A stretch of DNA of 63,847 bases from an uncultured Bdellovibrionales bacterium (GCA_964420045.1 CAYQPQ010000003.1:1-63847); one strand, 5' to 3'; numbered from the stretch's first letter, positions 1,198-37,187 are shown. Numbers and translations are program-made. Notes: generated from the letters alone by a model not told the origin.

Positions 1198-1602
1198 TCA
1201 ATCAATGAGATCCTTTGCTTTCAGGTCATCGAAGATGAGTTGATCTACGGGCGATACCTCATTTCGTCTTGAAAAGTCAAACCAATCCATTTGTTCCACT
1301 TCGGCACTGGGCGCAAGCTCCCCGGTATATTTTCCTTGATAACAGGTCATTCTCACGAGCGTTCCCTCGGGTTTTCCGTGAGCTTGCGCTTCAAAAGTTC
1401 CGTAGTGCTCGAGAGTTTCGGAAATGATATCAACTTGTAACTCTTCTTTCATTTCTCGCATCAAGGCTTCTTGATCGCTTTCGCTATTCTTGCGTTTTCC
1501 TCCCGGAATATACCAAGCGTCTTTTCCATAGCTCTTCGTTTCCAATACCTTCCGATTGCGGATTTCAATGAACGCGAGTTTGTCGATATATGTTTTTTCC
1601 AT
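1198..1602 (-). CDS. NUDIX hydrolase
   Basis: Nudix box GGKRKNSESDQEALMREMKEELQV (GX5EX7REUXEEXGU). ATG at 1602 preferred; the listed ORF extends to a GTG at 1620 that overlaps the GH28 stop by 4 nt. Lies directly downstream of GH28-a on the same strand. Confidence 0.8.
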   Translation of the reverse strand: MEKTYIDKLAFIEIRNRKVLETKSYGKDAWYIPGGKRKNSESDQEALMREMKEELQVDIISETLEHYGTFEAQAHGKPEGTLVRMTCYQGKYTGELAPSAEVEQMDWFDFSRRNEVSPVDQLIFDDLKAKDLID

Positions 1603-1616
1603 ACGAATATCGTATC

Positions 1617-3302
1617 TCACTGGATTAGGGCGTTTGCATTAGCTTCTCCCGAGAAAGTGACGGAGTCTTTGGTGAAGCCGCTTGCTTGGATGTTTATATT
1701 GTGCGAAGCGGCGTCGGCAATGGTGAGGCAGTCTTTGCGGACGAGGGGGCATTTGATGTTTTTGAATATGAGATTGGTGCTCTCGGCGATATCGAAGACG
1801 GTGCCTTTGGTGGGGACGGCGGCGAGAGTGTCGAAGGTGATGTGATCTGCCTCTTCTATCTGAGTGCCCCACTTGGATGAGATTTTAATGTTTTTGAAAT
1901 GAATGTCAGTGACCGGTTGCTCCGTGAGTCCGCTGATTTCTATTGAGCGATCGGTTTTCCCGACAGTCATATCTTCTACGGCGATGTTGCGGAAAAGGGG
2001 GATAGCGCCAACGCCTTTTATGAAGGAGTTTTCATAGGCGGTTGTGAGCTGTATGGCGGCGATGGAGGCGTAGTTGATGTTCATTGTGTTGACATGAATA
2101 TTCTCCACGATACCGCCGCGACCTTTGGAGGACTTGATGCGAAAGCCGTACTGCACCATGTTGGCAGAGAGATTTTCAATGAAGATATTGCGAACGTCTC
2201 CGGACATTTCGCTCCCAATGGCGACAGCGGCATGCGCCTCGAGGATGGAATTGTTGCGGATTAAGACGTCCTCGGTTGGTTCTCGGACGCGGAGTCCATC
2301 GCCGTTTCTGCCGGATTTGAGGACGATGGCATCGTCGCCGGTACTGAAGACGTTATTCTCAATAAGAACATCGTGTGATGAGTCCAGCGCGACGCCGTCG
2401 GTGCTTGGTCCGGGGTTTGTTTCGATATGGACACCTCGGACGATAACGTTTTCACTATAGAGCGGGTGAATCGTCCACATGGGACCGTTTTGTATGGTGA
2501 CGCCCTCCACGAGCACACGATGGCAGTTCATAAATTCAATGAATGCCGGGCGAAGCGAATCCTCGACGGTTCCAAAGACGCGTTCGGATACCGGTACATT
2601 GTCATCGCCCATTTGGTAGAGTCGCTTGATTGTTTTGTCCCATTTGCGCATGGCGGTCCACCACGCGGCGCCCTGACCGTCGAGAGTGCCTTCGCCGGTA
2701 ATGGCGACGTCGAATGCATTCGCCGTATATATGGGGGCGGAGTAATTATAGTACTCAATGCCCTCGAATCGCGAGAAAACAACGGGTAAGTAGTCTTCGA
2801 AATGTGTGCTGAACAAAATTGTCGAGCCTTTTTCGAGGTGAAGGTTGATGCGGCTCTTGAGGTGTATGGGACCCGAAAACCAGGTACCCTTAGGAATAAG
2901 CACGGTTCCGCCTCCGGTTTTAGCGCAATCGTCGATCGCTTTCCGGAAGGCATCGGTATTGGAGGTGACGCCGTCATGTTTCCCGCCGTAATCGGCAATG
3001 GAGCATACTCTGTCAGGAAAGCTGGTTTCCTCGATAGCGAGCGAGGAGCCGGAGAGTGTTTGCAGGGCAATCTTCGATGTTGCTGGCGGGATGGATTGGG
3101 ATATATCGGGAAATTCTCGCGGAATTTCCGGTTCGGTTGGTGGTACTGCTTCGCGTGAGTCTTCCCGGACAAGTGTGTGTGACGAAGAAAACGTTCCGCT
3201 TCGGTAGTTTTCAAGCAGTATCCATCCTCCAAGAATCACGACGAGCGAGAGTGTCCCGAAAGCGATAAGCATGAATGGTATGCGAAGAGCTCCTCGAAGC
3301 AT
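1617..3302 (-). CDS. Membrane-anchored glycoside hydrolase family 28 protein (exo-polygalacturonase-like beta-helix), copy a
   Basis: N-terminal TM (FMLIAFGTLSLVVILGGWILL) and a Pro/Ser linker. GH28 blocks follow: SIADYGG...GGGTVLIPKGTW, PSTDGVALDS, STGDDAIVLKSGRNGDG, AIGSEMSG, FRIKSSKGRGG. Paralogue of 14876-16378. Confidence 0.8.
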   Translation of the reverse strand: MLRGALRIPFMLIAFGTLSLVVILGGWILLENYRSGTFSSSHTLVREDSREAVPPTEPEIPREFPDISQSIPPATSKIALQTLSGSSLAIEETSFPDRVCSIADYGGKHDGVTSNTDAFRKAIDDCAKTGGGTVLIPKGTWFSGPIHLKSRINLHLEKGSTILFSTHFEDYLPVVFSRFEGIEYYNYSAPIYTANAFDVAITGEGTLDGQGAAWWTAMRKWDKTIKRLYQMGDDNVPVSERVFGTVEDSLRPAFIEFMNCHRVLVEGVTIQNGPMWTIHPLYSENVIVRGVHIETNPGPSTDGVALDSSHDVLIENNVFSTGDDAIVLKSGRNGDGLRVREPTEDVLIRNNSILEAHAAVAIGSEMSGDVRNIFIENLSANMVQYGFRIKSSKGRGGIVENIHVNTMNINYASIAAIQLTTAYENSFIKGVGAIPLFRNIAVEDMTVGKTDRSIEISGLTEQPVTDIHFKNIKISSKWGTQIEEADHITFDTLAAVPTKGTVFDIAESTNLIFKNIKCPLVRKDCLTIADAASHNINIQASGFTKDSVTFSGEANANALIQ

Positions 3303-3312
3303 GGTAGCAAAA

Positions 3313-5226
3313 TTAGTTCTCTGTTGATGAAGTATCCGAAGAGTCGCTTCTTAGAAAAAGGTTTTCGGCAGGAAGTATCTTGATAAAATTTTCCGATCGA
3401 TTGCCGATGATAAAGGTGCGTGTCGTCTCGTTTGTTTCATAGGCCTTTTTGAAATCGATCGGATCGCTTCCGGGATGTGAGAGCTTGAGTGTTCTTGAGC
3501 GGCGTCCCGAGGAAACAACGACATAGTCTACCTGAAGATCTCGCAAGTCCTTCTGGCTCAAGCCGGTGCGGCACTCTCCGATGAAGACCGCGCAAACGGC
3601 GCCCTTGTCCGACCATATGGATATTTCGCGAGGATTTGGCAGGTGATTGAGAAAGTCGGCAGCCTCCCAACTGCCATCGCCCATATCTTTTAAATTCACA
3701 AAATAGGGTTCCGGGAGAAGAAATGAGGTATAAGCAAAGTAGTACGGTTTGACGGAAAGGAGACTGATAAGCGAGAAAATGAATGTGGCAAGTACTGCCG
3801 CGATGGCAATGGCGTCTTCTTGATACTTCCGGAGGTGATTTGACGTAAGGAAAAATGAAATACCGATGGCTGCGAGGATGCAGGCAAAGGGAAAGAGCGT
3901 TATTTGATACCGAACGGTAGCAATAACATGGTTTACGGTCGAGGCGATATAGTAGAGGAAGATAAACAAGGAAAGAAAGAATGCGATTCTGGTTTCTCGT
4001 GAGGCGATATGGCGCTTTGTTATGCCAAGGGTGAGTGTCGCGATGAGTGCAAAAAGCGCGAGCGGCGAAATGCCAAACATGAGACTGTAGAGATCGGCGA
4101 CGATATTGTCGGCAAAGATAAAGAGGTGCGATCCATCTCCTCCGGAACCCTTTGGAGAAGCGAGAGAAGCGTCGGTATTGAAGATGCTCATGCCGGTAAA
4201 GGTATTGAGTGCTACAAAGAAAAGCGCGGCAATGAAGAGAATGAACGTCGCCTGAATAAATCGCGTTCGGTATCGCGAGAGTACTTCCAAAATAAAAGCC
4301 GTGGTTTTGCTTTTGAGAAGTGAGGCATCGAGAGCGATGAGTGTAATAATTCCGACAAAAAGCGGCCACGTGCTTTCAAAGGCTTTGCTGAGAAATGTCC
4401 CCTCGAGAATCATTTCCGGATGCTTCCAGGTTGCGGGAAAGAAGGCGAAGAAGGTTGCGCAAGAAATAGCGACGAGAATAATGTAGTTGATGGCCGACTG
4501 CTTGAGGTAGGTTCGAAGTGCGGGCTTATCTTTGGAGAAGAGGTATTCAAGGAAGGGAAGGGCAAAGAAAAATATATACAAAATATTGGCGACATATTTG
4601 GTGAGAATCGAGAACCCAAGGAAAAGTCCGCTCATGTAGAGATATTTTTTCTCGGCGTTTTTCTGGAAAACAAAGTAACTCAATACCGAGAGCGGGAGAA
4701 ATATCCAGAGGAGTGAATCGGGATTGATAATAAGCGATATGCCGAAAAGTATCGGAGAAAATCCGATCAGAATAAAGGCGACCAGCGCGGTGGTCTCATC
4801 GAAGAGTTTTTTGAGAAGGAGAAAGAAAACCGGAAGCGACAAGAAGCAAAACAGAAAGATGGGCAGGCGGAAAAAGAAATTGATATCGTTGATGGCGCGG
4901 AATTCCTCATCTGTCTTTATGTCGTCGCGCAGGCTTTTGTAGGGCAGAGGATCTATTTTGAGGAGTCCGGCACCGGAAAGGATAGCGGTGGTAATACCCG
5001 GCTTGTCGTTGATATTGGTGGAACGCCATTTCCCTTCGGCGATGGCTTTCCAAAATTTCGGCGTGCGTTGGTACGTCCAGTAGGGTTCGTCGACAGCCGA
5101 ATATGACTCAAGGCGAAGCAGCCCGAGTGTGAGATGTGTTGCGAGCACGGCGACAATAACTAGGGGCGCGCGGTATTTTTTGAGGAATTCTTTCATGAAG
5201 CAGGGAGAGAATAGAAAGCCAAACAT
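3313..5226 (-). CDS. Polytopic GT-C fold glycosyltransferase (GT39/ArnT/PMT-like), family B copy a
   Basis: 637 aa with more than 10 predicted TM helices. The first loop carries a DE motif (SAVDEPYWTYQRTPKFWKAIAEGKWRSTNINDKPGIT). There is a C-terminal soluble domain. Paralogue of 12895-14829. Alternative ATG at 5196. Confidence 0.7.
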   Translation of the reverse strand: MFGFLFSPCFMKEFLKKYRAPLVIVAVLATHLTLGLLRLESYSAVDEPYWTYQRTPKFWKAIAEGKWRSTNINDKPGITTAILSGAGLLKIDPLPYKSLRDDIKTDEEFRAINDINFFFRLPIFLFCFLSLPVFFLLLKKLFDETTALVAFILIGFSPILFGISLIINPDSLLWIFLPLSVLSYFVFQKNAEKKYLYMSGLFLGFSILTKYVANILYIFFFALPFLEYLFSKDKPALRTYLKQSAINYIILVAISCATFFAFFPATWKHPEMILEGTFLSKAFESTWPLFVGIITLIALDASLLKSKTTAFILEVLSRYRTRFIQATFILFIAALFFVALNTFTGMSIFNTDASLASPKGSGGDGSHLFIFADNIVADLYSLMFGISPLALFALIATLTLGITKRHIASRETRIAFFLSLFIFLYYIASTVNHVIATVRYQITLFPFACILAAIGISFFLTSNHLRKYQEDAIAIAAVLATFIFSLISLLSVKPYYFAYTSFLLPEPYFVNLKDMGDGSWEAADFLNHLPNPREISIWSDKGAVCAVFIGECRTGLSQKDLRDLQVDYVVVSSGRRSRTLKLSHPGSDPIDFKKAYETNETTRTFIIGNRSENFIKILPAENLFLRSDSSDTSSTEN

Positions 5227-5348
5227 GCTTCTAGCATACAGGAATTGTTTTTGGTTTGCAAAAATATATGGCTCGTAGAGGGGCTTTCCGCTTTACGGAC
5301 GGGGCATGAGAGTGATAGAATGTCTCATATCGCTTGTGAGGAATTTCT

Positions 5349-7109
5349 ATGGATATTTTGAAAAGATACTGGGCTCTGTTTGTTTTGCTTGCCATACTTC
5401 TCGGAGCTGTTTTTGTGCGAACATACTCCTTGGATGAATGGCTGTACTTCAAGATGGATCAGGCTCGTGACGCGCTGCTTCTTACGGATGTCCTTGAAAA
5501 CGGTCCGGGCAGTTTGCCGCTGCTTGGTCCTCGAGTGGGCGCAGTGGAACTCCATCAGGGATTTTTGCGTTTGGGTCCGATATATTACTACTTTCAGTAT
5601 CTTTCCGGTATCTTGTTCCACTCGTCCGAGCCGGCTGTCTTTGCGTATCCGGACGTGTTCTTCTCGATTGCCGCAATACCGCTTCTCTATATCTTTGCTC
5701 GACTCTACTTTGAGAAACGCCATGCGCTCATGGTGACGGCTCTGTACGCGTTTTCATTTCTGATTATTCAGTACTCTCGATTCGCATGGAATCCGAACTC
5801 GCTGCAATTCTTCATCCTTTTGAGTTTCTATGGACTTATACGATTTCTCAACGACGAACATGCCACATCAAAAAGATGGTGGCTTGCGCTCTGGGCGCTT
5901 GGCAGTGCGATCGGATCGCAGCTTCATTTTTTCGGATTCTTCAGTCTTCTGGGAATTTCGGGCTTGCTCATGCTTTTCCATCTCAAGGTCTGGAAGCAAT
6001 CATCATGGAAGGCGTTTCTTCACAAAGAGCAACTCCGGCAGTTTGCAATATTCTCCACTATTGTCATCGGAGTGTTTGCCATACTATATACGCCGGTTAT
6101 TTTGAGTGACAGTCTGCGCGGCGGAGAGAACACGAGGAATTTCTTCGAAGCATTGGGATCAAAGGCGGAGAAAAAGCCACTTGTAGACAAGCTTCAGAAA
6201 ACCATGACAGAAAACTTGAAGTACTCGTGTCTTCTACTGACATCGGAATGCTATGCTAGTGATGCCAATTCCAAAGAAAACCTCCCGTTCGTTGCAATAG
6301 CCGCGTTCGTACTTCTTGTTGGCGGAACACTTGCTTTTCGGAGAGCGCGAAGCGAACAGAGTGAGCTGCGTCGGGATTTTCTGGTATTGACGCTGCTCTG
6401 GCTCGGTGTCTTTATGGTTCTGACAGAGCCGGTCTCATTTCAGCTGCGTCCGCGCTTTTATATTGTCATTTTTGCTATCCCGTTTCTCTTTTTGGGATTT
6501 CTCTATGAGTTTCTCGAGGAGCGTTTTGGAAAGCGTGCGCGTTGGGCATCGCTTGTCATAACGGTTGGTATTCTCGCGATCAATATGCACGGGACAGTAT
6601 TGTGGTTCGAAGAACAGGCAAGGGCACAGACAAAAGCGGTTTCGGCAAAGCGAACGCTGATTCTGAAAACCAAAGATGGTGTGACTCTGGGACAATTGCG
6701 CGGTGCGGCGGACTGGATGTACGCGCATATGAAACCGGGAAATACGCTTTACTACTATGTGAAGCCGGAGCACCAGCGTCCGATAAAATTTCTCTTGCGT
6801 TCGCATAAAGATGAATCACTCCGTATCGAGTTGCTCAAAATGAACGGCGATCCCCACGCGCAATTTTTTGCGATTACACCTGCAAAAAATGGAAAGAAGG
6901 ATATTGCGAAGAAGCTGAAGCGCCCCGAGGCGGAATTTACCATTCTTGACTCGAAGCAATTTGGCGAGCTGTTGGTTTCGGAACTCGACTTTCCGAGTCG
7001 GAATATTTCTGAGGCGTTTACCTACAAAGAAAGTATCGAAAAAGATCGAGAAGGAGAAGATGACCGAAGCTATTGGAAGGATGTTCTGCCAAATTTTTTT
7101 AAGGAATAA
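5349..7109 (+). CDS. Polytopic GT-C-like membrane glycosyltransferase, family A paralogue 1
   Basis: 586 aa. Shared family signature: FVRTY..DEW..FKMDQARDALL..LPLLGP..LGPIYYYFQYLSG..AYPDVFFSI..IPLLY..YSRFAWNPNS..QLH. About 11 TM helices plus a roughly 150-aa C-terminal domain. Confidence 0.65.
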   Translation: MDILKRYWALFVLLAILLGAVFVRTYSLDEWLYFKMDQARDALLLTDVLENGPGSLPLLGPRVGAVELHQGFLRLGPIYYYFQYLSGILFHSSEPAVFAYPDVFFSIAAIPLLYIFARLYFEKRHALMVTALYAFSFLIIQYSRFAWNPNSLQFFILLSFYGLIRFLNDEHATSKRWWLALWALGSAIGSQLHFFGFFSLLGISGLLMLFHLKVWKQSSWKAFLHKEQLRQFAIFSTIVIGVFAILYTPVILSDSLRGGENTRNFFEALGSKAEKKPLVDKLQKTMTENLKYSCLLLTSECYASDANSKENLPFVAIAAFVLLVGGTLAFRRARSEQSELRRDFLVLTLLWLGVFMVLTEPVSFQLRPRFYIVIFAIPFLFLGFLYEFLEERFGKRARWASLVITVGILAINMHGTVLWFEEQARAQTKAVSAKRTLILKTKDGVTLGQLRGAADWMYAHMKPGNTLYYYVKPEHQRPIKFLLRSHKDESLRIELLKMNGDPHAQFFAITPAKNGKKDIAKKLKRPEAEFTILDSKQFGELLVSELDFPSRNISEAFTYKESIEKDREGEDDRSYWKDVLPNFFKE

Positions 7110-7121
7110 CACGGGACACAC

Positions 7122-8792
7122 ATGAAGCGGTGGGCGGATTTTTTATATCGATATTTTTCTTTCCATTTGAAACGGCCACTGTCTGGGTCTGGGGTTGTGT
7201 GGACACTGCTCCTTGTTTTGTTGGTGGGAATTTTTGTTCGTACCTATCACTTTCGGGAATGGCTTCACTTCGGATCGGATCAGGCACGAGATGTGATGTT
7301 GGTAGGGGACGTGATTGACGGAAGAGAATCGTTGCCGCTCCTTGGTATGGAGGCGGGAAATACGCGATTCGATCTCGGTCCTGCGTACTACTATCTTCAG
7401 ATAGCGTCGGCACGTATGTTTGGAGTGCGTCCGGAGACTGTGGCTTACCCGGATCTGTTGCTGTCTATTCTGACAATTCCGCTCTCGTTCTTTCTTTTCC
7501 GAAAGCTTTTCGATCGTCATCTTTCGCTCGCGTTGACGGGATTATATGCGATTTCTTTCTATGTCGTCGAGTATTCCCGGTTCGCGTGGAATCCGAATGC
7601 AATCCCGTTCTTTGTGGGGCTTTTCCTGCTCTCTCTGACGGAATTCATGGAGACGGAAGAAAAGACTGCATGGTGGTGGATACTTGCGCTCGGAACCGCT
7701 ATTGGTATCGGTATACAATTGCATACGATTCTCTTATTTCTGTTCCCGGCGATACTCTTTGGAGTTTTCTTGATGTTCCTGAAGAAGAATATCGGAGTCA
7801 TAGCGCGCGTGTTCGGCATAGTGGTGCTCGTGCTCGCATTGAATATTCCGCAAATCGTGAGTGAAGTCCAGACGCATGGAAAGAATACGAAACTTTTCTT
7901 CAAGGCGCTGACAGACCGATCGGAGAGCGGGAGTTCACGATTTGCGGAGAGTCTCGAAATAGATATCTTGTGTCATGCACAGGCAAATTCTCACATTCTC
8001 TCTTCACTCGGGCACCATGGTAATTGCGATTTTCTCACGCTTCTTTTGAGTTCGGAAAAATTTGCAAACTTTCACACTCTTGCGCTCTCATATGGCGGAA
8101 TTATAGTGAGTGTTCTTTTTTCCAGTATCGGCTATGGTCTTCTTATTTTTCTTGCGTTCAAAGAATCGGACCCGAGGCGACGGAAATTTCTTTTTGTTAT
8201 CTTGATATATTCGAGTCTTTCATTTCTCATCCTTTTTTCTGTTATTCGAGGAGCGCCGCTTCGATACTTCATCCATGCAACGTTTATTCCCTTTCTGCTG
8301 CTGGGATTATTCTTGGTCTGGATTCGGAAACACTGTCGGTTCTCGGGAATGCTTGTAGCGGGAATCATTGGCGTCTTAGCGTTGTTGAATATACGGGCGA
8401 TAGGTATTGAGGCGGCAGCGCTCGCGTCGGGAACGCGCGGGGATGCCGGATTTGTTGTCCTTGGAGAGGCGGAGAATATGGTGGCGTACATGAAAGAGCG
8501 ATCCGGATCGTGGACGGAAGCGAATCTTGCTGGAGGAACTGCGTATTTTTCAACCTACTACAAATCGCTCAAATATATCGCAGCACAACAGGGTCTTGAT
8601 ATTCACTTGGCAAAGCGGAAGCATCCTCCGGTGTCCGAGGTACCGTATTTCTTTATCTATCGGCCGCTCGATCAGAGGGATCCGTCTTTCGCGAGGGGGT
8701 ATGACGTGTTGGACTCTCGTGACTTTGGGAATATGGGCATATATCATCTGCAGAGCACAAAATATCGGGATCAAGAACATCTCGCACGGTAA
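7122..8792 (+). CDS. Polytopic GT-C-like membrane glycosyltransferase, family A paralogue 2
   Basis: 556 aa. Motifs FVRTYHFREWLHFGSDQARDVML, LGPAYYYLQ, AYPDLLLSI, YSRFAWNPNAIPFF, IQLHT. Starts 12 nt after paralogue 1. Confidence 0.65.
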   Translation: MKRWADFLYRYFSFHLKRPLSGSGVVWTLLLVLLVGIFVRTYHFREWLHFGSDQARDVMLVGDVIDGRESLPLLGMEAGNTRFDLGPAYYYLQIASARMFGVRPETVAYPDLLLSILTIPLSFFLFRKLFDRHLSLALTGLYAISFYVVEYSRFAWNPNAIPFFVGLFLLSLTEFMETEEKTAWWWILALGTAIGIGIQLHTILLFLFPAILFGVFLMFLKKNIGVIARVFGIVVLVLALNIPQIVSEVQTHGKNTKLFFKALTDRSESGSSRFAESLEIDILCHAQANSHILSSLGHHGNCDFLTLLLSSEKFANFHTLALSYGGIIVSVLFSSIGYGLLIFLAFKESDPRRRKFLFVILIYSSLSFLILFSVIRGAPLRYFIHATFIPFLLLGLFLVWIRKHCRFSGMLVAGIIGVLALLNIRAIGIEAAALASGTRGDAGFVVLGEAENMVAYMKERSGSWTEANLAGGTAYFSTYYKSLKYIAAQQGLDIHLAKRKHPPVSEVPYFFIYRPLDQRDPSFARGYDVLDSRDFGNMGIYHLQSTKYRDQEHLAR

Positions 8793-8832
8793 TGACTGCA
8801 GACGTGTGAAGCCGCTTCTTTTGTTGATAAGA

Positions 8833-10428
8833 ATGTCTATGGATCATTTCATTGATATGTATCGGAAAATTTCCTGGACGGTATGGGCATTGGCAGCAAT
8901 TCTCATCGCCGGGATTTTCGTTCGAACATTCCACTTTCATGACTGGCTTCGTTTTAATGCTGATCAGTCGCGGGACGCCGGTATTGTGAGTAATGTTCTT
9001 GAGGGAGAAACACCGCCTCCGCTCCTTGGTCCGAAGGCCGGCGGGACGGAGTTTCGTCTTGGATCAGCATTCTATATATTTCAAATCGCCTCCGCTTCGA
9101 TTTTCGGAGACCGACCGGACGTGATGGCCTATCCCGATCTCCTGACTTCCATTCTTGCCATTCCGCTTCTCTATCTTTTTCTGCGTCTGTATTTCGAAAG
9201 AAAAACAGCTCTTGCGCTGACAGCGATATTCGCCCTGTCATTTTATGCAGTGAAGTATTCTCGATTCGCATGGAATCCGAATTCGCTGCCGTTTTGGACG
9301 CTACTTTTTTTCTTAGCACTGCATCGTCTGACACTCTTTGCCGGGAAAACCGAGAAGCTCTGGGCGGTCTTGCTGGGCGTTGCTTTGGGCGTTGGTGTGC
9401 AGCTTCATACCTTGACACTTATTGTACTTCCGATGATGACGGTGGGCGTTTTCGGATACCTCGCGTATTTCCGAAGGCGAGAAATCGGCACTGTGTTTCT
9501 CATCGTTTCCGCTGTGGCAATAGCGTTGAACGTCGGGCAAATTATGAGCGAATTCCGAACTGGCGGAGAAAACATATCGGCATTTCTTTCCGGTGTCGGA
9601 AAAAAGCAGGAAAAAGGAAATGGTCTCATGCGAAATGTTGCTCAAGATACAACGTGTTTCATTGAAGGGACAGTCTATATTGTGACGTCGCATGATATTT
9701 CCGATACCTGTAGTACGAAATCGCTTGGAAGAAATATTGATGGAATTTCTTTTGCAATGGGAACAGTTTTGTTTTTTGGCGGAATATTCCTGGCTTTTCG
9801 CGTGCTTCGGCGCGAACAAGAACTTTCTCGGCGATATTTTCTGACATTGAATATCGTGTTTCTTGCACTTTCGTTTCTCTTGCTTGTTCCGCTTGCCAAT
9901 GAAGTGTCCATGCGGTTTTTCCTCATGATGGTATTTTTACCATTTGTGTTGCTCGGACTCTGGCTTGAATTTCTTCAAGAGAAATTTCCCCGACAAGCGC
10001 ATATTTTCATAGCATGTGGATCGATAGCGCTCTTACTTCTGAATGGATACGCTATACGACAGTCATTTTCCGAATACGCGTCTTTTCTGGATGAACATTC
10101 AACGGCGGGAATGGACAATGTTTTGCTTCGAGAAGTCGAAGAAGCGGCTGATTTCATCGTGCTTCATGCGGATGGAAACTCGACAGTATCGCTTCGCGGA
10201 GATTCGAAATATCTCTTTAAAGCATTGAAATCTATCCGCTATTTTACGGAGAAGCAAGGTGTTGATGTCATTCAGGCGGGAAAGGGGAAAGGAGGCACCA
10301 ATCTTCCGGAGTTTCTCGTTGAAAACACGAAGCGGAATAAGAAGACTCTCGAAGAAAACCCCGGTGTGGTAGACTGGAAAATAATCGGGCGCTTCACGAT
10401 CTTTCGGTTGCCGCATGATGTGCAGTGA
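8833..10428 (+). CDS. Polytopic GT-C-like membrane glycosyltransferase, family A paralogue 3
   Basis: The listed ORF begins at 8527 but its first 102 codons overlap paralogue 2 and look like noise. ATG at 8833 gives MSMDHFIDMYRKISW...FVRTFHFHDWLRFNADQSRDAGI, LGSAFYIFQ, AYPDLLTSI, YSRFAWNPNSLPFW, VQLHT. Confidence 0.65.
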   Translation: MSMDHFIDMYRKISWTVWALAAILIAGIFVRTFHFHDWLRFNADQSRDAGIVSNVLEGETPPPLLGPKAGGTEFRLGSAFYIFQIASASIFGDRPDVMAYPDLLTSILAIPLLYLFLRLYFERKTALALTAIFALSFYAVKYSRFAWNPNSLPFWTLLFFLALHRLTLFAGKTEKLWAVLLGVALGVGVQLHTLTLIVLPMMTVGVFGYLAYFRRREIGTVFLIVSAVAIALNVGQIMSEFRTGGENISAFLSGVGKKQEKGNGLMRNVAQDTTCFIEGTVYIVTSHDISDTCSTKSLGRNIDGISFAMGTVLFFGGIFLAFRVLRREQELSRRYFLTLNIVFLALSFLLLVPLANEVSMRFFLMMVFLPFVLLGLWLEFLQEKFPRQAHIFIACGSIALLLLNGYAIRQSFSEYASFLDEHSTAGMDNVLLREVEEAADFIVLHADGNSTVSLRGDSKYLFKALKSIRYFTEKQGVDVIQAGKGKGGTNLPEFLVENTKRNKKTLEENPGVVDWKIIGRFTIFRLPHDVQ

Positions 10429-10509
10429 AAACATGAGAGATTGTGTAACGAGTTGAACTGTTGGGAATCTTTTGAGGAGAAATCCATACTATATCGGACG
10501 GGGTAACCT

Positions 10510-11220
10510 ATGACAAAGATGCGAGAGAAAAATATGATATTCACCGCTGACGATTTTGGCATTAGTCAAAAGGCGGACGAGAGGATTCTGAAACTCGCCG
10601 AAGCGGGAGTACTTGATCGTGTTGCCGTTATGACTCGGGGAACAGCAACAGCATCATCGCTCGAACGATTGGCGAAATCGGGCGTCAAGATTGATCTTCA
10701 CGCGGAAATTCGCGACGATATCGATCCGAATCGAACGCTCAAAGCGGGCGCAGCGGGGAGAATTTTTATTTTTGTGAAAAATTTTCTGTTTGGTGAGAAT
10801 CGCGTGTCCCGCGTAGCTGAGCGATGGGATGCGCAAATACGAGACTTTCAATCGATATTTGGCAGATACCCCGACGGACTGAATTCTCATGAACATACGC
10901 ATTTTTTTCCGCCGTATTTTCGAGCACTTCTTTCTCTGGCAAAGAAATACGATATTCCATTTGTTCGATTCGGAAAGAAATCGTTTCCGGGGAATACGTC
11001 GGTATCGCGTATTCTCAATATGCTCCGCGTGGCGGACCGACAGGAATTTTCTCGGTCGGGACTTGCTTCATCCGACATAATGATCAGTTTTGACTGGATA
11101 GGATCGCTTGAACCGCTTGAAAAATATCCGGAAAGCATGACAATAGAGATTCTGTTTCATCCGGAAAGAGACGAGGAAATGGAATTTCTCGAAAAGAATT
11201 TCCTCTCGAGCTCAATATAA
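10510..11220 (+). CDS. YdjC/ChbG/NaxD-family carbohydrate deacetylase
   Basis: 236 aa. N-terminal FTADDFGISQKADERILKLAEAGVLDRVAVM and HEHTHFFP blocks are typical of the YdjC superfamily. Embedded between GT-C paralogues 3 and 4. Confidence 0.75.
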   Translation: MTKMREKNMIFTADDFGISQKADERILKLAEAGVLDRVAVMTRGTATASSLERLAKSGVKIDLHAEIRDDIDPNRTLKAGAAGRIFIFVKNFLFGENRVSRVAERWDAQIRDFQSIFGRYPDGLNSHEHTHFFPPYFRALLSLAKKYDIPFVRFGKKSFPGNTSVSRILNMLRVADRQEFSRSGLASSDIMISFDWIGSLEPLEKYPESMTIEILFHPERDEEMEFLEKNFLSSSI

Positions 11221-11281
11221 CGAGATTTTGGTTAGGCATTTGAGAGTGAGACAGGTTTTTCCGAACACTTTATATTTCTCT

Positions 11282-12898
11282 ATGGATGTATTCACGAGAG
11301 TGCAAGCGAAGATCAGAAATGAAAAGCGGATTCAGTACGCCATCCTCGCGGGAATCATCACTCTGGGTGTCTTCCTTCGGACCGTTCACTTTCAGTCATG
11401 GATGGAGTTTTCTCCCGATCAGGCGCGTGATGCGACACTGATCGACAAAGTGCTGTCCGGTGAAGAGCCACTCCCGCTTCTCGGTGCCGAATCAGGGAAT
11501 ACTAGATTTAAGCTTGGTCCGATAGCCTATCATTGGCAATATCTTTCCGGGCTTCTCTTTGGATCCGAACCGTACAACTTGGCATACCCGGATCTCCTTT
11601 TTTCGATTTTTGCTCTCATTCTATTCTTCTTCTTGATGCGAAAATATTTCTCCGCCGAGAGAGCTCTCCTTTTGACTCTCCTCATGAGCTCGTCGTTCTT
11701 TCTGGTGAAATATGGTCGATTTGCCTGGAATCCGAATGCTGCACCATTCTTCTCACTTCTTTTTTTGTTCGCGCTTCTCGAGACGCTTGACCCAAAGAAT
11801 AAAGGGAGAGTGGTGTGGCCGGCACTTCTAGGTGTCGCCTGCGGTGTTGCTATTCAACTCCATACGCTGTTTATTTTTATTCTTCCGTGTGTTGTTGGAG
11901 CGGGATTTCTCTTGTGGATCAAACGCGGATTATTCTCTTGGCGCGGACTTGTCCTGTTTCTGGTTTGTTTTCTTGCTGTGAACTGGGCGCAGATATATCG
12001 TGATGTGAACCATCATTACTCAAACACCAATCGATTCTTGAAGGCTATTAGCAAAACATCGTCTGGAGATGGTGAAAGTGCTTTACTGAGAAATATAAAT
12101 GAAGCAACGGCATGCGAAGTGCAGTCAGGTGTGTACCTTCTGTCATCATGGGGTAATCTTGGGAAATGCGAACCGTGGGAATCCGCTTTGCGGCCGCATG
12201 ATATTGAAACGCGAACGACTTTTATCGCGGGGTTCATATTTGTTTTTGGAGGGTATATTCTTTTCGCTCGGTATTTTCGACGAGAGCCCGATGATCGAAA
12301 GTGGGATTTCCTATTTGTAACCGGACTTTACGCAATTGTTTCTTTCGTAGTGAGTATCCCCATTATTACGCAGGTCTCTACGCGTTATTACATAACCTCG
12401 TTTTTTCTCCCATTTATCATTCTTGGGTTGTGGATGAAGTTTCTTGGAAATAAAGTCGGTAAAATCGGCTCCGTCTTTGCAGTGGTTGCAATCGCGCTAT
12501 TTCTTGTCCTGTTTGCCGGTAATATTCGTTCGCTTTCCCTTTGGTCATGGAAGCTTTCTCATGGATCGGCAAGTGATTCAAAGACGGTGTTTTATGCAGA
12601 GGTACGCGATATGATGAGTTACATGGAAGCTCAGTTACCGGAGCAGAATATTGGACTTCTCGGGAGTGGCGACTCTATGTCGAGGTTCTTCAAGTCGCTC
12701 AACTATATCGCGGAAAACGATGGAAGGACGCTGCTTGACCTTTCAAACAAACATCGCGATCCTCATGGGCGTTTCTTTTACATAGATGAATCGGTGCCGG
12801 AATCCGAACTCCGTGTGCAATCAACGTATAAAGGATATGTTGTGGAAGGGTATCGTGTGTTTGGTCAGATTGTGATATTGACACTTCGCGCTGAATGA
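11282..12898 (+). CDS. Polytopic GT-C-like membrane glycosyltransferase, family A paralogue 4
   Basis: The listed ORF starts at a TTG (11228); ATG 11282 preferred. Motifs FLRTVHFQSWMEFSPDQARDATL, LGPIAYHWQYLSG, AYPDLLFSI, YGRFAWNPNAAPFF, IQLHT. The stop overlaps the next start (ATGA at 12895-12898). Confidence 0.65.
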   Translation: MDVFTRVQAKIRNEKRIQYAILAGIITLGVFLRTVHFQSWMEFSPDQARDATLIDKVLSGEEPLPLLGAESGNTRFKLGPIAYHWQYLSGLLFGSEPYNLAYPDLLFSIFALILFFFLMRKYFSAERALLLTLLMSSSFFLVKYGRFAWNPNAAPFFSLLFLFALLETLDPKNKGRVVWPALLGVACGVAIQLHTLFIFILPCVVGAGFLLWIKRGLFSWRGLVLFLVCFLAVNWAQIYRDVNHHYSNTNRFLKAISKTSSGDGESALLRNINEATACEVQSGVYLLSSWGNLGKCEPWESALRPHDIETRTTFIAGFIFVFGGYILFARYFRREPDDRKWDFLFVTGLYAIVSFVVSIPIITQVSTRYYITSFFLPFIILGLWMKFLGNKVGKIGSVFAVVAIALFLVLFAGNIRSLSLWSWKLSHGSASDSKTVFYAEVRDMMSYMEAQLPEQNIGLLGSGDSMSRFFKSLNYIAENDGRTLLDLSNKHRDPHGRFFYIDESVPESELRVQSTYKGYVVEGYRVFGQIVILTLRAE

Positions 12899-14829
12899 AT
12901 CGGACTCTCTACAAGTATTTTAGTATGAAGATGCCTTTGAAATTTCGATGGAGTCTGAATGTGACTATTGGGCTGCTTCTTGGTGTTGTAGTAGTGATGA
13001 ATCTTTCATTGGGAATCCCACGACTCGCCAAGTTTTCTGCGATTGATGAACGTCTCTGGACGTATGATCGGATACCGCAATTTTGGCGCGCGATTGAGAA
13101 GGGAGAATGGAAAAAGACCGATATCAACGATAAGCCAGGCATCACAGTTGCTCTTACTTCAGGTGTGGGATTGTTGTTCTCCAATCCGAAGTCGACCGAA
13201 ATGCTTCGCACTACATCGAAAAATGTGAATGATCTTGCGAAAATATACCAAGTAGATACTTCGTTTCGTCTGCCAATCTATCTCTTTACTCTCTGTATGA
13301 TGCCGGTATTCTTTTGGCTCATACGTCGGCTTTTTGAGAGTAATCGGATTGCATTTTTTGCGACTGCATTCATATTTCTCTCCCCGATTCTTCTCGGTAT
13401 ATCACTTATCGTGAATCCAGATTCTCTCTTGTGGATATTTCTTCCGCTCTCCTTGGTGAGCTTTCTCATTTTTCTTAAAGAGGAAGATTGGAAGTGTGCT
13501 GTTATGAGTGGAGGTTTTCTGGGTTTTGCACTACTTACGAAATATGTTTCCACGATCCTTTTTCCATTTCTCTTCCTTCTGGTGTTTCTGGTTCAGGTTT
13601 TTCCATTACGAAAATATGTTTCGAGTGTGGATGAAAAATCAATGTTGGCGAGGTCTCTCCGAATCGGATTGATGGGATATCTTTGCACTGTATTTGTTGC
13701 ATGTCTTACGGTTTTTGGGTTTTATCCGGTTGTTTGGGTGTCGTTCAATACGCTGCTTCAGACGACTATTTTGAGCCGTCCGATGGTGTCAGTGGGAACG
13801 CCTCTTGCAGTGTTGATTGCTGGAACATTCATTGATGTGGTTCTCTTGAAGGCGTATCTTTCTCAGAAAATCGTACAGGTGCTTTCTCGACATGAATCCT
13901 TATGCCGAAGAGTGCTTGCAGGAGGGTTTCTTGCGTCAATCCTCTTTGTTTTCACAAATGTGTATCTTCACATGAGGTGGATCAATTTTCCCGCTCTCCT
14001 CGCGTCACCGAAAGCACCAGGTACGTGGAGTGTGATCGAGCTTGTTTCCGGCGCCTTTACGGGTCTCTACGGACTTCTGTTTGGGATAACTCCCATTGTG
14101 TCTCTCTTTTTCTTTCTGACAGTTATTTCCTTACTTGGCATTCGGTCTTTTTCTTTCAGGGAAGAGCATCGATCGATAGTTCTTATCTTGCTTGTATTTA
14201 TGGGAGCCTACTATGCTGCCTCTGCTGTGAATTTTGTTGATGCGACGGTTCGGTATCAAATTTCCCTCTATCCGCTCGCATTCATTGTGGCGGCTGTCGG
14301 AGCGCTTCAGTGTTTTTTGTGGATTCGCGCGAAGCTTCGCGTGTCTCTTCTTGTGTTTTCATGCGGTATCCTTTTGTGCTCTCTGGCAAGTCTTCTGCTT
14401 ATTCGCCCGTTCTATTTCTCGTATGCCTCCGTGCTCTTGCCGAAGCAATATGTGCTCAATATGAAGGGTATGGGGGATGGGAGTTATGAAGCATCTCAAT
14501 ATTTGAACAGTCTCCCGAATGCGCAGAGTTTGTCCGTGTGGACTGATGAAGCGGCTGTCTGCGATCATTTTGTTGGACACTGTATCTCGAGTGTCAAACA
14601 AAAAAATGTGGAGGGACAGAACTTCGATTATTTCGTTATTTCTCTTGGAAGAAGACAGAAATCAATAGGGTTTTCCTCTCTTCGGCAGGTAACTGATCCT
14701 GATTTTCTCTGGGCGATGAGGCAGTATGATTCCGAAAACTTTCGGGGACATCAAATATCCATTGGAGGACGAGCGGCAAACTTTATAAAGATAATTCGGA
14801 ACGAATCGCAGTCGCGGGATGCTTTGTAG
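12895..14829 (+). CDS. Polytopic GT-C fold glycosyltransferase (GT39/ArnT/PMT-like), family B copy b
   Basis: 644 aa. SAIDERLWTYDRIPQFWRAIEKGEWKKTDINDKPGIT parallels 3313-5226, with the same TM layout and C-terminal domain (MGDGSYEASQYLNSLPN versus MGDGSWEAADFLNHLPN). Confidence 0.7.
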   Translation: MNRTLYKYFSMKMPLKFRWSLNVTIGLLLGVVVVMNLSLGIPRLAKFSAIDERLWTYDRIPQFWRAIEKGEWKKTDINDKPGITVALTSGVGLLFSNPKSTEMLRTTSKNVNDLAKIYQVDTSFRLPIYLFTLCMMPVFFWLIRRLFESNRIAFFATAFIFLSPILLGISLIVNPDSLLWIFLPLSLVSFLIFLKEEDWKCAVMSGGFLGFALLTKYVSTILFPFLFLLVFLVQVFPLRKYVSSVDEKSMLARSLRIGLMGYLCTVFVACLTVFGFYPVVWVSFNTLLQTTILSRPMVSVGTPLAVLIAGTFIDVVLLKAYLSQKIVQVLSRHESLCRRVLAGGFLASILFVFTNVYLHMRWINFPALLASPKAPGTWSVIELVSGAFTGLYGLLFGITPIVSLFFFLTVISLLGIRSFSFREEHRSIVLILLVFMGAYYAASAVNFVDATVRYQISLYPLAFIVAAVGALQCFLWIRAKLRVSLLVFSCGILLCSLASLLLIRPFYFSYASVLLPKQYVLNMKGMGDGSYEASQYLNSLPNAQSLSVWTDEAAVCDHFVGHCISSVKQKNVEGQNFDYFVISLGRRQKSIGFSSLRQVTDPDFLWAMRQYDSENFRGHQISIGGRAANFIKIIRNESQSRDAL

Positions 14830-14875
14830 TCAATATTGGACTAGGAAGGTAGAAATAAACAAGAGAAAACGTCGT

Positions 14876-16378
14876 ATGAAAAGGATCTATTTTGTTTATA
14901 TGGGTATTCCGCTGCTTTTCGTAGGGGTGATTTTTTTTCGTGAAATTTATTTCGGGAAGCAGGAAGTGAAGAATATGATCGCCCTCGAGAGAATCTCAAC
15001 AGATCATGAGGAATCACCATTTCCAGAAATGACCTCACTTACAGAACCTTCGTTTCCTGACAGGGTATGCAGTATAGCTGATTTCGGTGCTATTGGAGAT
15101 GGGGACACCATGAATACGCGCGCGTTTGCTACAGCCATCAATGAATGTGCGAATCATGGCGGTGGAAAGGTACTGGTACCAAAAGGGAAATGGCTCACCG
15201 GACCGGTAGCACTGAAAGATAACATATGGCTCTTTCTCGAGAAAGACGCAGAAATTCTCTTTAGTATTCAGAAATCGGACTATCTTCCCGTGGTTCGTTC
15301 GCGATTTGAAGGAGTTGAATACTTCGGTTACTCCTCGCCGCTTTCGGCAAGAAACGCAGAGAATATTGCCATAACCGGCGAAGGAACAATCAATGGGCAA
15401 GCGGAGAAATCATGGTGGACATCTGTTGATGATCCAGAGGTGGCAGTTTCTCTGGTTGAGCTGTACCGAATGGGGCAAGACGGAGATCCGGTTGAGAATC
15501 GTGTTTTTGGCGAAGGGAGGGGACTTCGCCCGGCCTTTGTTGAGCTCTTCGAGTGTCACACCGTGCTTATTGATGGTGTGACATTTCTGAATGGTCCCAT
15601 GTGGACGATTCATCCGCTCTATAGCGATACGGTCTCCATTCGGAATATTGTGGTTCAAACACATGACGGTCGAAACACGGACGGAATAGTTGTTGATTCT
15701 TCGCAAAATGTTTCCATCAAAGACTCTCGGTTTGCTACCGGTGATGACGCTATTGCTATCAAGTCTGGTCGGGACAATGACGGTATGCGTATTGGAAGAC
15801 CGTCGAAAAATGTTCTCATCCGGAACTGTGTTGTTGAGGATGCTCACGCGGCTATTGCCATTGGAAGTGAAGTATCCGGCGGCATACACGATATCTTTGT
15901 CGATACGATACGGGTGAAAAATGCCGACTTTGGCATTCGTATGAAATCAAGTCCGGGTCGAGGAGCTTCGGTTCATACTATTCGAATCCGTAATATGGAT
16001 ATCGAGAATGCGAGGATCGCCGCTCTTGAATTGGATCAAATGACCGGAGAAGCGGTCTCGGTCGGAGTGGCGCTCACAGACTTTCATGATATTCACATTG
16101 AAAATGTACGGTGTGGTTGGACGAGGAAGCCTCTGCGATTTAACGGATCGGCAGAACAACCTCCGTATGACATAACACTTCGTGATTTCACGATATCAGC
16201 AAGCGGCACGGCGTCTCTGGAGAATGTTCAGGACGTATTGATCAAGAATTTCACACTAACATCTTCGCGAAAAGGCAAGGATCCAGGCATGGATATTGTC
16301 GGGAGTCACCATGTCATCCTTGATCAAACCAATCTTCCGCAGTCTCGGATACTGTGCAAAGATGGATGTGTCTACTGA
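14876..16378 (+). CDS. Membrane-anchored glycoside hydrolase family 28 protein (exo-polygalacturonase-like), copy b
   Basis: ATG 14876 (MKRIYFVYMGIPLLFVGVIFF, a TM segment); the listed ORF starts at 14819. GH28 blocks: SIADFGAIGDG, GGGKVLVPKGKW, RNTDGIVVDS, ATGDDAIAIKSGRDNDG, AIGSEVSGG, IRMKSSPGRG. Confidence 0.8.
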   Translation: MKRIYFVYMGIPLLFVGVIFFREIYFGKQEVKNMIALERISTDHEESPFPEMTSLTEPSFPDRVCSIADFGAIGDGDTMNTRAFATAINECANHGGGKVLVPKGKWLTGPVALKDNIWLFLEKDAEILFSIQKSDYLPVVRSRFEGVEYFGYSSPLSARNAENIAITGEGTINGQAEKSWWTSVDDPEVAVSLVELYRMGQDGDPVENRVFGEGRGLRPAFVELFECHTVLIDGVTFLNGPMWTIHPLYSDTVSIRNIVVQTHDGRNTDGIVVDSSQNVSIKDSRFATGDDAIAIKSGRDNDGMRIGRPSKNVLIRNCVVEDAHAAIAIGSEVSGGIHDIFVDTIRVKNADFGIRMKSSPGRGASVHTIRIRNMDIENARIAALELDQMTGEAVSVGVALTDFHDIHIENVRCGWTRKPLRFNGSAEQPPYDITLRDFTISASGTASLENVQDVLIKNFTLTSSRKGKDPGMDIVGSHHVILDQTNLPQSRILCKDGCVY

Positions 16379-16445
16379 AGGAACACAAAAAAACAAGCGC
16401 CTATATCGGCTTGCTGAGAAGGGGAATAATAGAAAAAGAAATTTC

Positions 16446-17390
16446 CTAGTCTCGAGGTTTTTTCCGTATGATATAGAGCGGGCGACCAAGAACCTCTCGA
16501 TGAATGTTTTCGATGTAGAGCGAGAGCAATCCGATAGACATGAGGAGAATGCCCACGAGGAACACGATAAAGATAGCGAGATTTTCCGCGTCGGAGAAGG
16601 TTGAAGCAAAGTACGAGTGGAAGAAGTATTTTCCGAGCAAGATGTAGAATCCGGCAATAGCCGATACTGTTGTGATACAAATGCCAAGATAGCCGGCAAG
16701 CCGCAGAGGAAAGAGACTCAGTGAGACGAAACTGTTGAAGGCGAGCCGTGCCAGCTTCCAGAAGTTGTAGCTTGCCGTTCCATGCAGTCGCTCATTGGCG
16801 TCGAAGGAGATGTAGGTTCGTTTGAACCCGAGCCAGTCGATGAGTCCGCGAGTCATCCGATTCACTTCGGTAAGGCGGTTGAATTCGTCGACTACCGCAC
16901 GGTCGAGCAATCGAAAATCGGTTGAATTTGGAACGATTTTCGTTTCAACAATAGCGTTCAATACAGCATAAAAAAGTGTGGAGCCAACTTTTTTCACCCA
17001 TGAATCGCTTCGGCTTTTATTTCGAACGCCGACCACGACTTCGAACCCGACTTCCCACTGCTTTACAAATTCCGGAATCAACTCAACCGGATGTTGGAGA
17101 TCGGCATCTATTAAGATACACGCATCACCGGAAGCATGATTTAATCCCGCTGTTGTTGCGATTTCCTTGCCGAAGTTTCTCGAAAAATCAATATACCGTA
17201 TGCGGGAGTCACTCTCGGAGACGCGTTTTAAAACATCGAGAGTTGTGTCGGTGCTCCCATCGTTTACAAAAAGAAGTTCGTAGGAATACGAGTTGCCGAG
17301 GGATGCAAGTACCGGTCGCACACGCTCACATAAGGCGGGAATATTTTCCGCTTCGTTGTGTGCCGGGATAATAAGGGAAAGCATCTTCAT
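16446..17390 (-). CDS. GT2 polyprenyl-phosphate sugar synthase (ArnC/GtrB/DPM1/RgtE-like)
   Basis: 314 aa. SLIIPAHNEAENI, LLFVNDGSTD, LIDADLQHP, plus two C-terminal TM helices (LGICITTVSAIAGFYILL, IFIVFLVGILLMSIGLLSLYI), the ArnC/GtrB architecture. Confidence 0.75.
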   Translation of the reverse strand: MKMLSLIIPAHNEAENIPALCERVRPVLASLGNSYSYELLFVNDGSTDTTLDVLKRVSESDSRIRYIDFSRNFGKEIATTAGLNHASGDACILIDADLQHPVELIPEFVKQWEVGFEVVVGVRNKSRSDSWVKKVGSTLFYAVLNAIVETKIVPNSTDFRLLDRAVVDEFNRLTEVNRMTRGLIDWLGFKRTYISFDANERLHGTASYNFWKLARLAFNSFVSLSLFPLRLAGYLGICITTVSAIAGFYILLGKYFFHSYFASTFSDAENLAIFIVFLVGILLMSIGLLSLYIENIHREVLGRPLYIIRKKPRD

Positions 17391-17583: not shown

Positions 17584-17657
17584 GGACAATTAGCTCAGCT
17601 GGTTAGAGCGCTGCATTCACATTGCAGAGGTCGCTGGTTCGAGCCCAGCATTGTCCA
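17584..17657 (+). tRNA. tRNA-Val (anticodon CAC)
   Basis: Hand-folded cloverleaf. Acceptor GGACAAT/ATTGTCC; D arm GCTC..GAGC; anticodon stem CTGCA/TGCAG with loop TTCACAT; T arm GCTGG-TTCGAGC-CCAGC; discriminator A. No encoded CCA. rplI starts 25 nt downstream. Confidence 0.9.
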
Positions 17658-37178: not shown

Positions 37179-37187
37179 TATTCTCCT

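Follow-up and report, generated by a model that had tools for sequence, protein, structure and literature searches.

What does an ultrasmall bacterium build on its surface with six large membrane glycosyltransferases encoded side by side, and why are two glycoside hydrolases kept beside them? These questions are raised by an eleven-gene cluster at positions 1198-17390 of a 63,847-nucleotide stretch of DNA (CAYQPQ010000003.1:1-63847, called the window throughout). The cluster encodes six putative transferases of the GT-C class (the outer-type proteins O1 and O2 and the central-type proteins c1-c4), two members of glycoside hydrolase family 28 (GH28a and GH28b), a YdjC-family deacetylase, a family 2 glycosyltransferase (GT2-A) and a NUDIX hydrolase. 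Judged by its proteins, the organism is a Candidatus Moraniibacteriota bacterium of the candidate phyla radiation (CPR), the homologues of O1, c2 and GH28a coming overwhelmingly from metagenome-assembled genomes of Candidatus Moranbacteria/Moraniibacteriota. CPR bacteria, or Patescibacteria, are ultrasmall and live attached to other cells via their surfaces, and to our knowledge there is almost no experimental information on the composition of their envelopes. The cluster, about 16 kb, would take up about 1.4% of the genome if this is about 1.1 Mb long, as in the nearest complete relatives, and because it is conserved across the phylum and has expanded in particular lineages it stands out as a major determinant of the cell surface. 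We conclude that the cluster probably encodes a system, dependent on polyprenyl-phosphate sugars, for assembling or decorating a glycan of the envelope outside the membrane, in which an exo-galacturonidase-like enzyme serves as trimming partner.

Families and folds of the cluster proteins

An original prediction, made from the DNA alone, had counted six GT-C transferases in the cluster, and all six large membrane proteins carry Pfam PMT_2 (PF13231) and/or PMT (PF02366) matches above the gathering score, with 8-13 transmembrane (TM) segments in each according to a hydrophobicity scan of the cluster proteins. Because searching the Protein Data Bank (PDB) with the GT-C sequences gave no useful match, folds were compared instead, using AlphaFold2 models predicted from family alignments for one protein of each class. 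For O1 (predicted local distance difference test score, pLDDT, 85.8; predicted template modelling score, pTM, 0.90), the best 28 PDB matches found by Foldseek were all GT-C enzymes, comprising STT3/AglB/PglB, ALG12/ALG9, ArnT, DPY19, Pmt4 and AftA. For c2 (pLDDT 91.9, pTM 0.90), the best match was ArnT 5EZM (E 1.8e-8, TM-score 0.53/0.55) and the remaining top matches were again all GT-C; AftB and EmbB, like AftA, were also among the PDB fold matches. The predicted GT-C fold was thus recovered for both models, and the other four proteins are placed by their 29-39% identity to the modelled O1 and c2.

Alignments of the O-type and c-type proteins, which together take in all six GT-Cs of the window, show conserved residues directly after the first TM segment: D46-E47 is invariant in the O-type (SAVDEPYW / SAIDERLW), and the c-type has an invariant D53, Q54 and D57 (DQ[AS]RD, with DQARD in c1). 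Since the acidic residues following this segment are invariant, all six enzymes look catalytically competent. The PMT-like DE motif is confined to O1 and O2 among the six, and neither a PMT_4TMC nor an MIR domain was matched by Pfam in any of them. The O-type and c-type appear by profile comparison to be separate and remotely related subfamilies, which hhalign aligns (86% probability) only within the PMT_2 core, over some 85 columns. O1 and O2 share 39% identity and c1-c4 share 29-36% with one another, c3 being 34-36% identical to c1, c2 and c4. At 29% identity to c2, 29% to c4 and 34% to c3, c1 looks like a third, distinct lineage.

GT2-A is, to judge from its sequence matches, a polyprenyl-phosphate glycosyltransferase of the GtrB/PgfS/ArnC type. 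In the PDB it matches GtrB 5EKP with 237 bits over residues 4-308 and ArnC with 135 bits, and in NCBIfam it matches PgfS with 240 bits (cut-off 500) and ArnC with 150 bits (cut-off 529), both over the full length and both below the equivalog level. It has a DAD motif (in ILIDADLQ) and two C-terminal TM segments at residues 221-239 and 271-289. It had been described as ArnC/RgtE-like, of which the polyprenyl-phosphate class and the two C-terminal helices stand, with no likeness to a processive synthase, whereas the nearer relatives are GtrB and PgfS rather than ArnC. GT2-A orthologues scoring at least 450 bits always lie beside O-type or O-GH28 genes. This adjoining GtrB-type enzyme suggests that the donors of the GT-Cs are polyprenyl-phosphate sugars.

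The YdjC-family assignment was upheld, as the ADDFG, H and SHxHxH segments of the metal site align with those of EF_3048 (2I5I) and of a chitooligosaccharide deacetylase (7VI8). The hydrophobicity scan found zero TM segments in the YdjC and NUDIX proteins, and the YdjC protein is predicted to be cytoplasmic and soluble because it contains no hydrophobic segment. A known member of its superfamily, NaxD, is a deacetylase acting on a lipid-linked sugar (PMC11279074). The YdjC gene recurs within the cluster in five lineages (related loci L004, L005, L035, L037 and L063), and its place inside a GT2/GT-C cluster in these lineages suggests that its product may act in a NaxD-like manner on a lipid-linked N-acetylhexosamine (HexNAc).

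As had been claimed, both hydrolases proved to be anchored GH28 proteins; each has a single N-terminal TM segment and an intact catalytic site. Pfam PF00295 scores 95 bits in GH28a and 105 bits in GH28b, and the two are 45% identical. Their closest characterised enzymes appear from sequence comparison to be exo-acting alpha-galacturonidases: the NCBIfam model of the BT4155 alpha-D-galacturonidase gives 321 bits for GH28a and 288 bits for GH28b, short of the equivalog cut-off of 800, and GH28a matches the Thermotoga exo-poly-alpha-D-galacturonosidase 3JUR with 295 bits in an alignment that spans the catalytic Asp residues, pairing D302, D323 and D324 with D239, D260 and D261. These three residues and K390 are invariant in 29 Moraniibacteriota GH28s, with H357 kept in 27 of the 29 and R388 in 28. 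The TM segment of GH28a lies at residues 12-30, basic residues precede the anchor in each window GH28, and 27 of 28 standalone GH28s have an N-terminal hydrophobic anchor. GH28 enzymes cleave alpha-galacturonosidic bonds, and hydrolysis of alpha-D-galacturonosidic bonds is accordingly predicted for this pair, which look like active hydrolases kept beside a transferase and not like decayed binding domains. Outside the CPR, their nearest homologues belong to polysaccharide degraders such as Bacteroides and Planctomycetota, at about 38-45% identity.

Conservation of the locus and its coupling to GH28

A scan of one genome per species yielded 77 related loci with O1 orthologues, taken with 10-kb flanks; many of these loci are incomplete and 40 are fully flanked, and their open reading frames (ORFs) were typed by phmmer with the window proteins and not with curated models. 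Those that are classified are nearly all Moraniibacteriota or wider Parcubacteria/Paceibacteria, and many records have an absent or doubtful taxon label. Because the same families recur around an O-type GT-C in 77 loci, the cluster is not a chance assembly, and the synteny expected for the block is present in its relatives. The conserved core consists of a divergent pair, a c1-type GT-C facing an O-type GT-C, together with a variable array of c-type genes. In 30 of the 40 fully flanked loci the gene immediately upstream of the O-type gene is a c-type gene in divergent orientation, which in close relatives is a clear c1 orthologue; c1 orthologues stand beside the O gene one to one in many relatives, where they typically score 550-1054 bits and the next paralogue about 200. 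O1 is thus the conserved anchor of the locus and c1 its conserved divergent partner. The c-type arrays contain from one to seven genes, and the median is four GT-Cs per 22 kb.

The mirror-symmetric layout first described for the cluster is real in the window, but it is a state of this lineage and not a conserved design. In the nearest complete genome (CP064989.1, locus L005, 1.09 Mb) the order is NUDIX, GH28, O, c1, c2, c3, YdjC, c4, GH28, GT2, without the right-hand outer GT-C, and a search for a remnant of O2 there was also negative. The outer pairs are protein-level paralogues, the four peptide strings quoted for them being exact and the identities as given above for the GT-Cs and the GH28s. 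Since O2 groups with the second O copies of L006 and L055, each of which lies beside a GH28, duplication of the O-GH28 module is ancient and was followed by loss in some lines, so O2 is an old paralogue of O1. A recent inverted duplication was considered as the source of the mirror layout and rejected: repeats at the DNA level are limited to one pair of 104-nt arms, 72% complementary, in the GH28 catalytic regions, the paired proteins are only 39-45% identical, and O2 has its closest counterparts among second copies elsewhere.

Coupling of GH28 to the O-type transferases goes beyond adjacency. A GH28 gene is present in 13 of the 40 fully flanked loci and adjoins an O-type gene in 10 of these 13. 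In at least two relatives (P0093, from L004, and P0099) the two are joined in single 1060-aa proteins, with an O-type GT-C at the N terminus and a GH28 at the C terminus. The GH28 part of the fusion lacks its own N-terminal anchor and is placed after the C-terminal domain of the GT-C, which positions it outside the membrane.

A hint of the sugar handled by the system comes from genes that most relatives carry 3' of the O gene. This module consists of a flippase-like protein (TIGR00374, 76.7 bits, above the cut-off), a family 4 glycosyltransferase (GT4), a TuaD-like UDP-glucose 6-dehydrogenase (Ugd, 538 bits) and a second family 2 enzyme, GT2-B, of 313 aa, which is ArnC-like (181 bits) and 27% identical to GT2-A. 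Ugd adjoins GT2-B in 37 related loci, and 35 loci have the full four-gene module. In several of the relatives a Wzx/MurJ-like gene stands next to the c-array, and a GtrA-like gene occurs in L083. Ugd, flippase-like, GT2-B, Wzx-like and GtrA-like genes were sought in the window and none was found. As the GH28 catalytic residues are intact and Ugd lies beside GT2-B in relatives, the glycan probably contains uronic-acid residues, in line with the hint of uronic acid first taken from the GH28 pair, and probably amino-sugar residues as well. A 61% identical copy of GT2-A sits directly past GT2-B in L083, so that GT2-A may be common just beyond the fetched flanks of the relatives.

An IS982-family transposase (197-1024, minus strand) lies at the left edge of the window, and L005 has an IS1595 transposase (933-1613) on the same side, which suggests that the locus has been rearranged in this lineage. 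The transposases may be tied to the missing flippase-like/GT4/Ugd/GT2-B module.

Several relatives carry further genes amid their arrays. Calcineurin-like metallophosphoesterases are interleaved with the GT-Cs in L083 (5062-6018), L084 (8873-9655 and 12033-13094) and L085 (2851-3870 and 5561-6388), and in the 804-aa protein P0222 a metallophosphoesterase is fused with a PMT_2 GT-C; this interleaving and fusion hint that the pathway includes the processing of a phosphodiester. The sole Metallophos gene of the window (37188-38303) is far from the cluster. In the distant relative L085 the locus runs on (17614-21806) into an FdtA-like isomerase, a DegT aminotransferase and an extra GT2 and GT4, a pathway of the dTDP-3-amino-sugar type, so that the envelope-glycan region is larger there.

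A possible pathway and its alternatives

In the pathway that we propose, GT2-A, a cytoplasmic inverting enzyme, would transfer a sugar from its UDP-linked form to polyprenyl phosphate, and the YdjC protein could optionally N-deacetylate a lipid-linked HexNAc to a cationic hexosamine (HexN). The carrier would be flipped across the membrane by a flippase encoded outside the block, after which the six GT-Cs (O1/O2, c1 and c2-c4) would pass the sugar or sugars to an envelope acceptor outside the membrane, with inversion to alpha-linked residues. Each GT-C probably has its own linkage or acceptor site, and the glycan would grow by successive extracytoplasmic additions. An inverting GT2 gives a beta-linked polyprenyl-phosphate sugar, from which an inverting GT-C then makes an alpha-glycoside, the type of bond cut by GH28. 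Because GH28 cleaves alpha-galacturonosidic bonds, the GT-C product formed from a polyprenyl-P-beta-galacturonic acid (GalA) donor would be a natural GH28 substrate. The anchored GH28 pair may therefore work with the O-type GT-Cs, trimming terminal alpha-linked uronic acid for editing or length control. This scheme predicts polyprenyl-P-HexNAc, -HexN and -hexuronic acid intermediates, alpha-linked uronic acid in the envelope, and a GT-C and a GH28 that act as a working pair.

The same three families, a GtrB/ArnC-class GT2 (there making undecaprenyl-P-HexNAc), a YdjC protein and a PMT_2-type GT-C, make up Francisella FlmF2/NaxD/FlmK and Bordetella LgmA-C, which add galactosamine or glucosamine to lipid A; unlike FlmF2/NaxD/FlmK, however, the cluster has six GT-Cs in three subfamilies instead of one, GH28 partners, and a CPR host with no lipid A genes in the window. 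In Rhizobium/Mesorhizobium, RgtE supplies bactoprenyl-P-GalA to RgtA-D and RgtF, ArnT-like GT-C paralogues that each have their own acceptor site (PMC7663294). The present cluster resembles that system in having one GT2 donor synthase for several GT-C paralogues and in the uronic acid indicated by GH28 and the relatives' Ugd. It differs in that the Rgt acceptor is lipopolysaccharide (LPS) core or lipid A with no glycoside hydrolase partner known, in that the window lacks Ugd and an epimerase, and in the GtrB/PgfS-like character of GT2-A. In monoderms, PgfS/PgfM1 and GtrB/PgtC2 pair a GtrB-family GT2, which makes an undecaprenyl-phosphate sugar, with GT-Cs that glycosylate extracytoplasmic targets (bioRxiv 10.1101/2024.05.05.592596). 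This combination of a GtrB-family GT2 and a GT-C is shared by streptococcal Pgf (PgfS/PgfM1/PgfE/PgfM2), GtrB/PgtC2, Bacillus/Listeria CsbB-YfhO and GacI-GacL, and PgfS is the best-scoring name for GT2-A, whereas the GT-Cs of these systems are of the YfhO family or GacL type and not PMT_2, number one or two, and come without GH28 or YdjC.

The use of many linkage-specific GT-Cs on one or two polyprenyl-P-sugar donors is paralleled by mycobacterial lipomannan/lipoarabinomannan and arabinan assembly (PimA/B GT4, Ppm1 GT2, PimE/MptA-C and the Emb/Aft GT-Cs), and relatives of the locus carry a GT4 and a flippase-like gene as well. The likeness is one of logic only, as there is zero orthology at the sequence level, the GT4/flippase module lies outside the window and the sugars differ. 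By this analogy a lipid- or wall-anchored heteroglycan is favoured over protein as the acceptor, and the GT4 and lipid-flippase-like genes of relatives would fit a glycolipid primer. In exopolysaccharide synthase operons a degradative enzyme for the polymer (BcsZ, PslG, PelA, AlgL) is encoded with the synthase and acts alongside it; those enzymes come from hydrolase and lyase families other than GH28, and the synthases that they accompany are of the GT2 or Wzy type. A bolder version of the proposal, which we put forward tentatively and hold to be doubtful, is that Moraniibacteriota make an anionic uronic-acid envelope polymer (a lipoglycan or a teichuronic-acid-like substitute for teichoic acid) built wholly outside the membrane by GT-C polymerases and branching enzymes on one or two polyprenyl-P-sugar donors. 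The GH28 exo-hydrolase, coupled or fused to the O-type, would then be an editing or length-control module, and variation in the c-array would make the surface glycan differ from lineage to lineage, which might for instance serve attachment to a host or escape from phages.

Several observations weigh against an extracytoplasmic uronic-acid glycan made in this way. The 64-kb window is without Ugd, a UDP-glucuronic acid 4-epimerase or a flippase candidate, so that a uronic-acid supply in this organism is putative, and the four-gene module is also missing beside the cluster in the nearest complete genome. GT2-A scores equally with the Glc-specific GtrB and the GalNAc-pathway PgfS, and so points to no single sugar. 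YdjC is found in few related loci (3 of the 40 fully flanked ones) and GH28 in only about a third. Orthology of c2-c4 becomes blurred past close relatives, which fits diversification and allows redundancy too. Finally, the TM-scores of the GT-C folds are moderate, at 0.4-0.55, so that neither subfamily nor acceptor can be read from structure.

The main alternative differs in its acceptor only. In protein O-glycosylation of the PMT/Pgf type, the GT2 would make polyprenyl-P-Hex(NAc) and each GT-C would act on different surface proteins, for instance pilins, S-layer proteins or adhesins, at stretches rich in Ser/Thr. The PMT/PMT_2 matches in all six proteins would be expected in such a system, as would an O-type loop 1 with a PMT-like invariant Asp-Glu and a donor synthase whose best NCBIfam name comes from the streptococcal Pgf pathway. 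PMT_4TMC and MIR went undetected, however, the nearest fold of the c-type is that of ArnT, a lipid-acceptor enzyme, and no Ser/Thr-rich target gene is present in the cluster; moreover, the exo-galacturonidase partner and the Ugd, GT4 and lipid-flippase-like gene of relatives are better suited to the assembly of a polymer or glycolipid. We regard proteins as a rather unlikely acceptor.

It is improbable that the GH28s stand outside biosynthesis altogether, as surface pectinase-type enzymes that scavenge galacturonate or attack a host or partner polysaccharide and adjoin the GT-Cs through shared envelope-related regulation. Such a role would suit their kinship with enzymes of polysaccharide degraders and their absence from most of the more distant loci, and the literature lists patescibacterial GH28 as a catabolic carbohydrate-active enzyme alone (PMC9868632). 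It is at odds with the in-frame GT-C-GH28 fusions and with the recurrence of O-type adjacency in several arrangements, duplicated O-GH28 pairs included, and no genes for uronate uptake or catabolism were seen in the window. A modification of lipid A or LPS core by a true Arn, Flm/NaxD or Rgt orthologue set would use the same component families (GT2, YdjC and PMT_2 GT-C), and ArnT is the best structural match of c2, but this is very unlikely in a CPR organism of the Moraniibacteriota. As had been noted from the start, no lpx or Kdo genes occur in the window, the sole LpxG-like match scoring 68 bits against a cut-off of 350; genes for ArnA, ArnB and ArnD are absent from it as well, and the 150 bits of GT2-A fall far below the ArnC equivalog level.

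The component parts and the carrier-lipid logic are already known, and automatic annotation already names the proteins 'glycosyltransferase family 39' and 'glycoside hydrolase family 28'. A literature search on GT-C, GT39, GT83 and GH28 in CPR, Moranbacteria and Patescibacteria found no account of the locus, and envelope glycans are not a subject of a 2024 overview of patescibacterial biology. In the literature searched there was neither a report of a hydrolase partner for a GT-C nor one of a GH28 that is paired with, or fused to, such an enzyme. Four features therefore appear to be undescribed: the locus as a phylum-wide entity, the variability of its GT-C arrays, the repeated pairing and fusion of GT-C with GH28, and the occurrence of all this in CPR genomes of about 1 Mb. 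The fusion is a new domain combination for the GT-C field.

Gene map and neighbouring features

The coordinates and strands first given for the cluster, its divergent gap and the ATGA at 12895-12898, where the c4 stop overlaps the O2 start, all agree with the ORF map and the sequence.

Table 1 Genes and intergenic region of the glycosylation cluster, in window coordinates
Feature	Position	Strand	Details
NUDIX hydrolase	1198..1620	-	140 aa; 4-bp overlap with the GH28a stop; Pfam NUDIX 41.8 bits
GH28a	1617..3302	-	561 aa; PF00295
O1, outer-type GT-C	3313..5226	-	637 aa; PMT_2 49 bits, PMT 44 bits
O1/c1 divergent intergenic region	5227..5348		122 bp; sequence inspected
c1, central-type GT-C	5349..7109	+	586 aa; PMT 41 bits, PMT_2 27 bits
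c2, central-type GT-C	7122..8792	+	556 aa; PMT_2 41 bits
c3, central-type GT-C	8839..10428	+	529 aa from ATG 8839; PMT_2 36 bits
YdjC-family deacetylase	10510..11220	+	236 aa; PF04794 97 bits; between c3 and c4
c4, central-type GT-C	11282..12898	+	538 aa from ATG 11282; PMT_2 31 bits
O2, second outer-type GT-C	12895..14829	+	644 aa; PMT_2 46 bits
GH28b	14819/14876..16378	+	519 aa (ATG 14819) or 500 aa (ATG 14876); PF00295
GT2-A	16446..17390	-	314 aa; PF00535 106 bits; convergent with GH28b

The start sites of c3, c4 and GH28b are the shorter ATGs taken from gene calls on an identical Logan contig (SRR12487046); the longest ORF of c3 begins at a TTG at 8527 and would run into c2. The region between O1 and c1 is presumed to be a bidirectional promoter region. 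It contains a single promoter-like match (5292-5321, plus strand), and the promoter and terminator scans overall gave no excess over shuffled expectation. The NUDIX gene is a possible accessory candidate: NCBIfam gave generic and weak Nudix matches alone for its product, and the order NUDIX-GH28-GT-C is also found in the nearest genome. Beyond GT2-A lie a tRNA-Val gene (17584-17658) and then CTP synthase. Genes for a second GT2 without TM segments (263 aa) and for a protein like galactose-1-phosphate uridylyltransferase lie 3-5 kb downstream of the cluster (20420-22382, plus strand); they are possible suppliers of UDP-hexose or may serve another glycosylation step.

The protein encoded at 43511-45322 had been put forward as a seventh GT-C, a claim that was not sustained. 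It is a 603-aa polytopic membrane protein whose hydrophobic segments number at least 11; there was no Pfam match even at E 0.1, no NCBIfam match and no BLAST match to the six GT-Cs, and hhalign against the c-type profile gave a probability of 8%. It is followed by a 447-aa protein, the two adjacent genes spanning 43511-46698 (plus strand) beside a GT4 gene (47221-48342, minus strand), and neither protein has a Pfam or NCBIfam match.

Three further features of the window lie outside the cluster. At 26951-29479 (plus strand) is an apparent 842-aa fusion of a MurL-like half (residues 7-397; 352 bits to the UDP-MurNAc-L-Ala-L-Glu epimerase, below the equivalog level) and a MurD half (258 bits, above the cut-off, residues 481-834), which suggests an alternative peptidoglycan route in this genome in which L-Glu is added and then epimerised. 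The genes at 38400-42280 (plus strand) form an ABC set of the gliding-motility type, here in a CPR genome: they encode an ABC ATPase, then a 770-aa protein in which a GldF-like ABC-2 permease is fused to a GldG-like domain, and then a DUF4340 protein. A peak of cumulative GC skew lies near 34-38 kb, and the genes switch from mostly plus to mostly minus strand near 46-47 kb, so that a replication terminus or origin possibly lies inside the window, at about 32000-47000.

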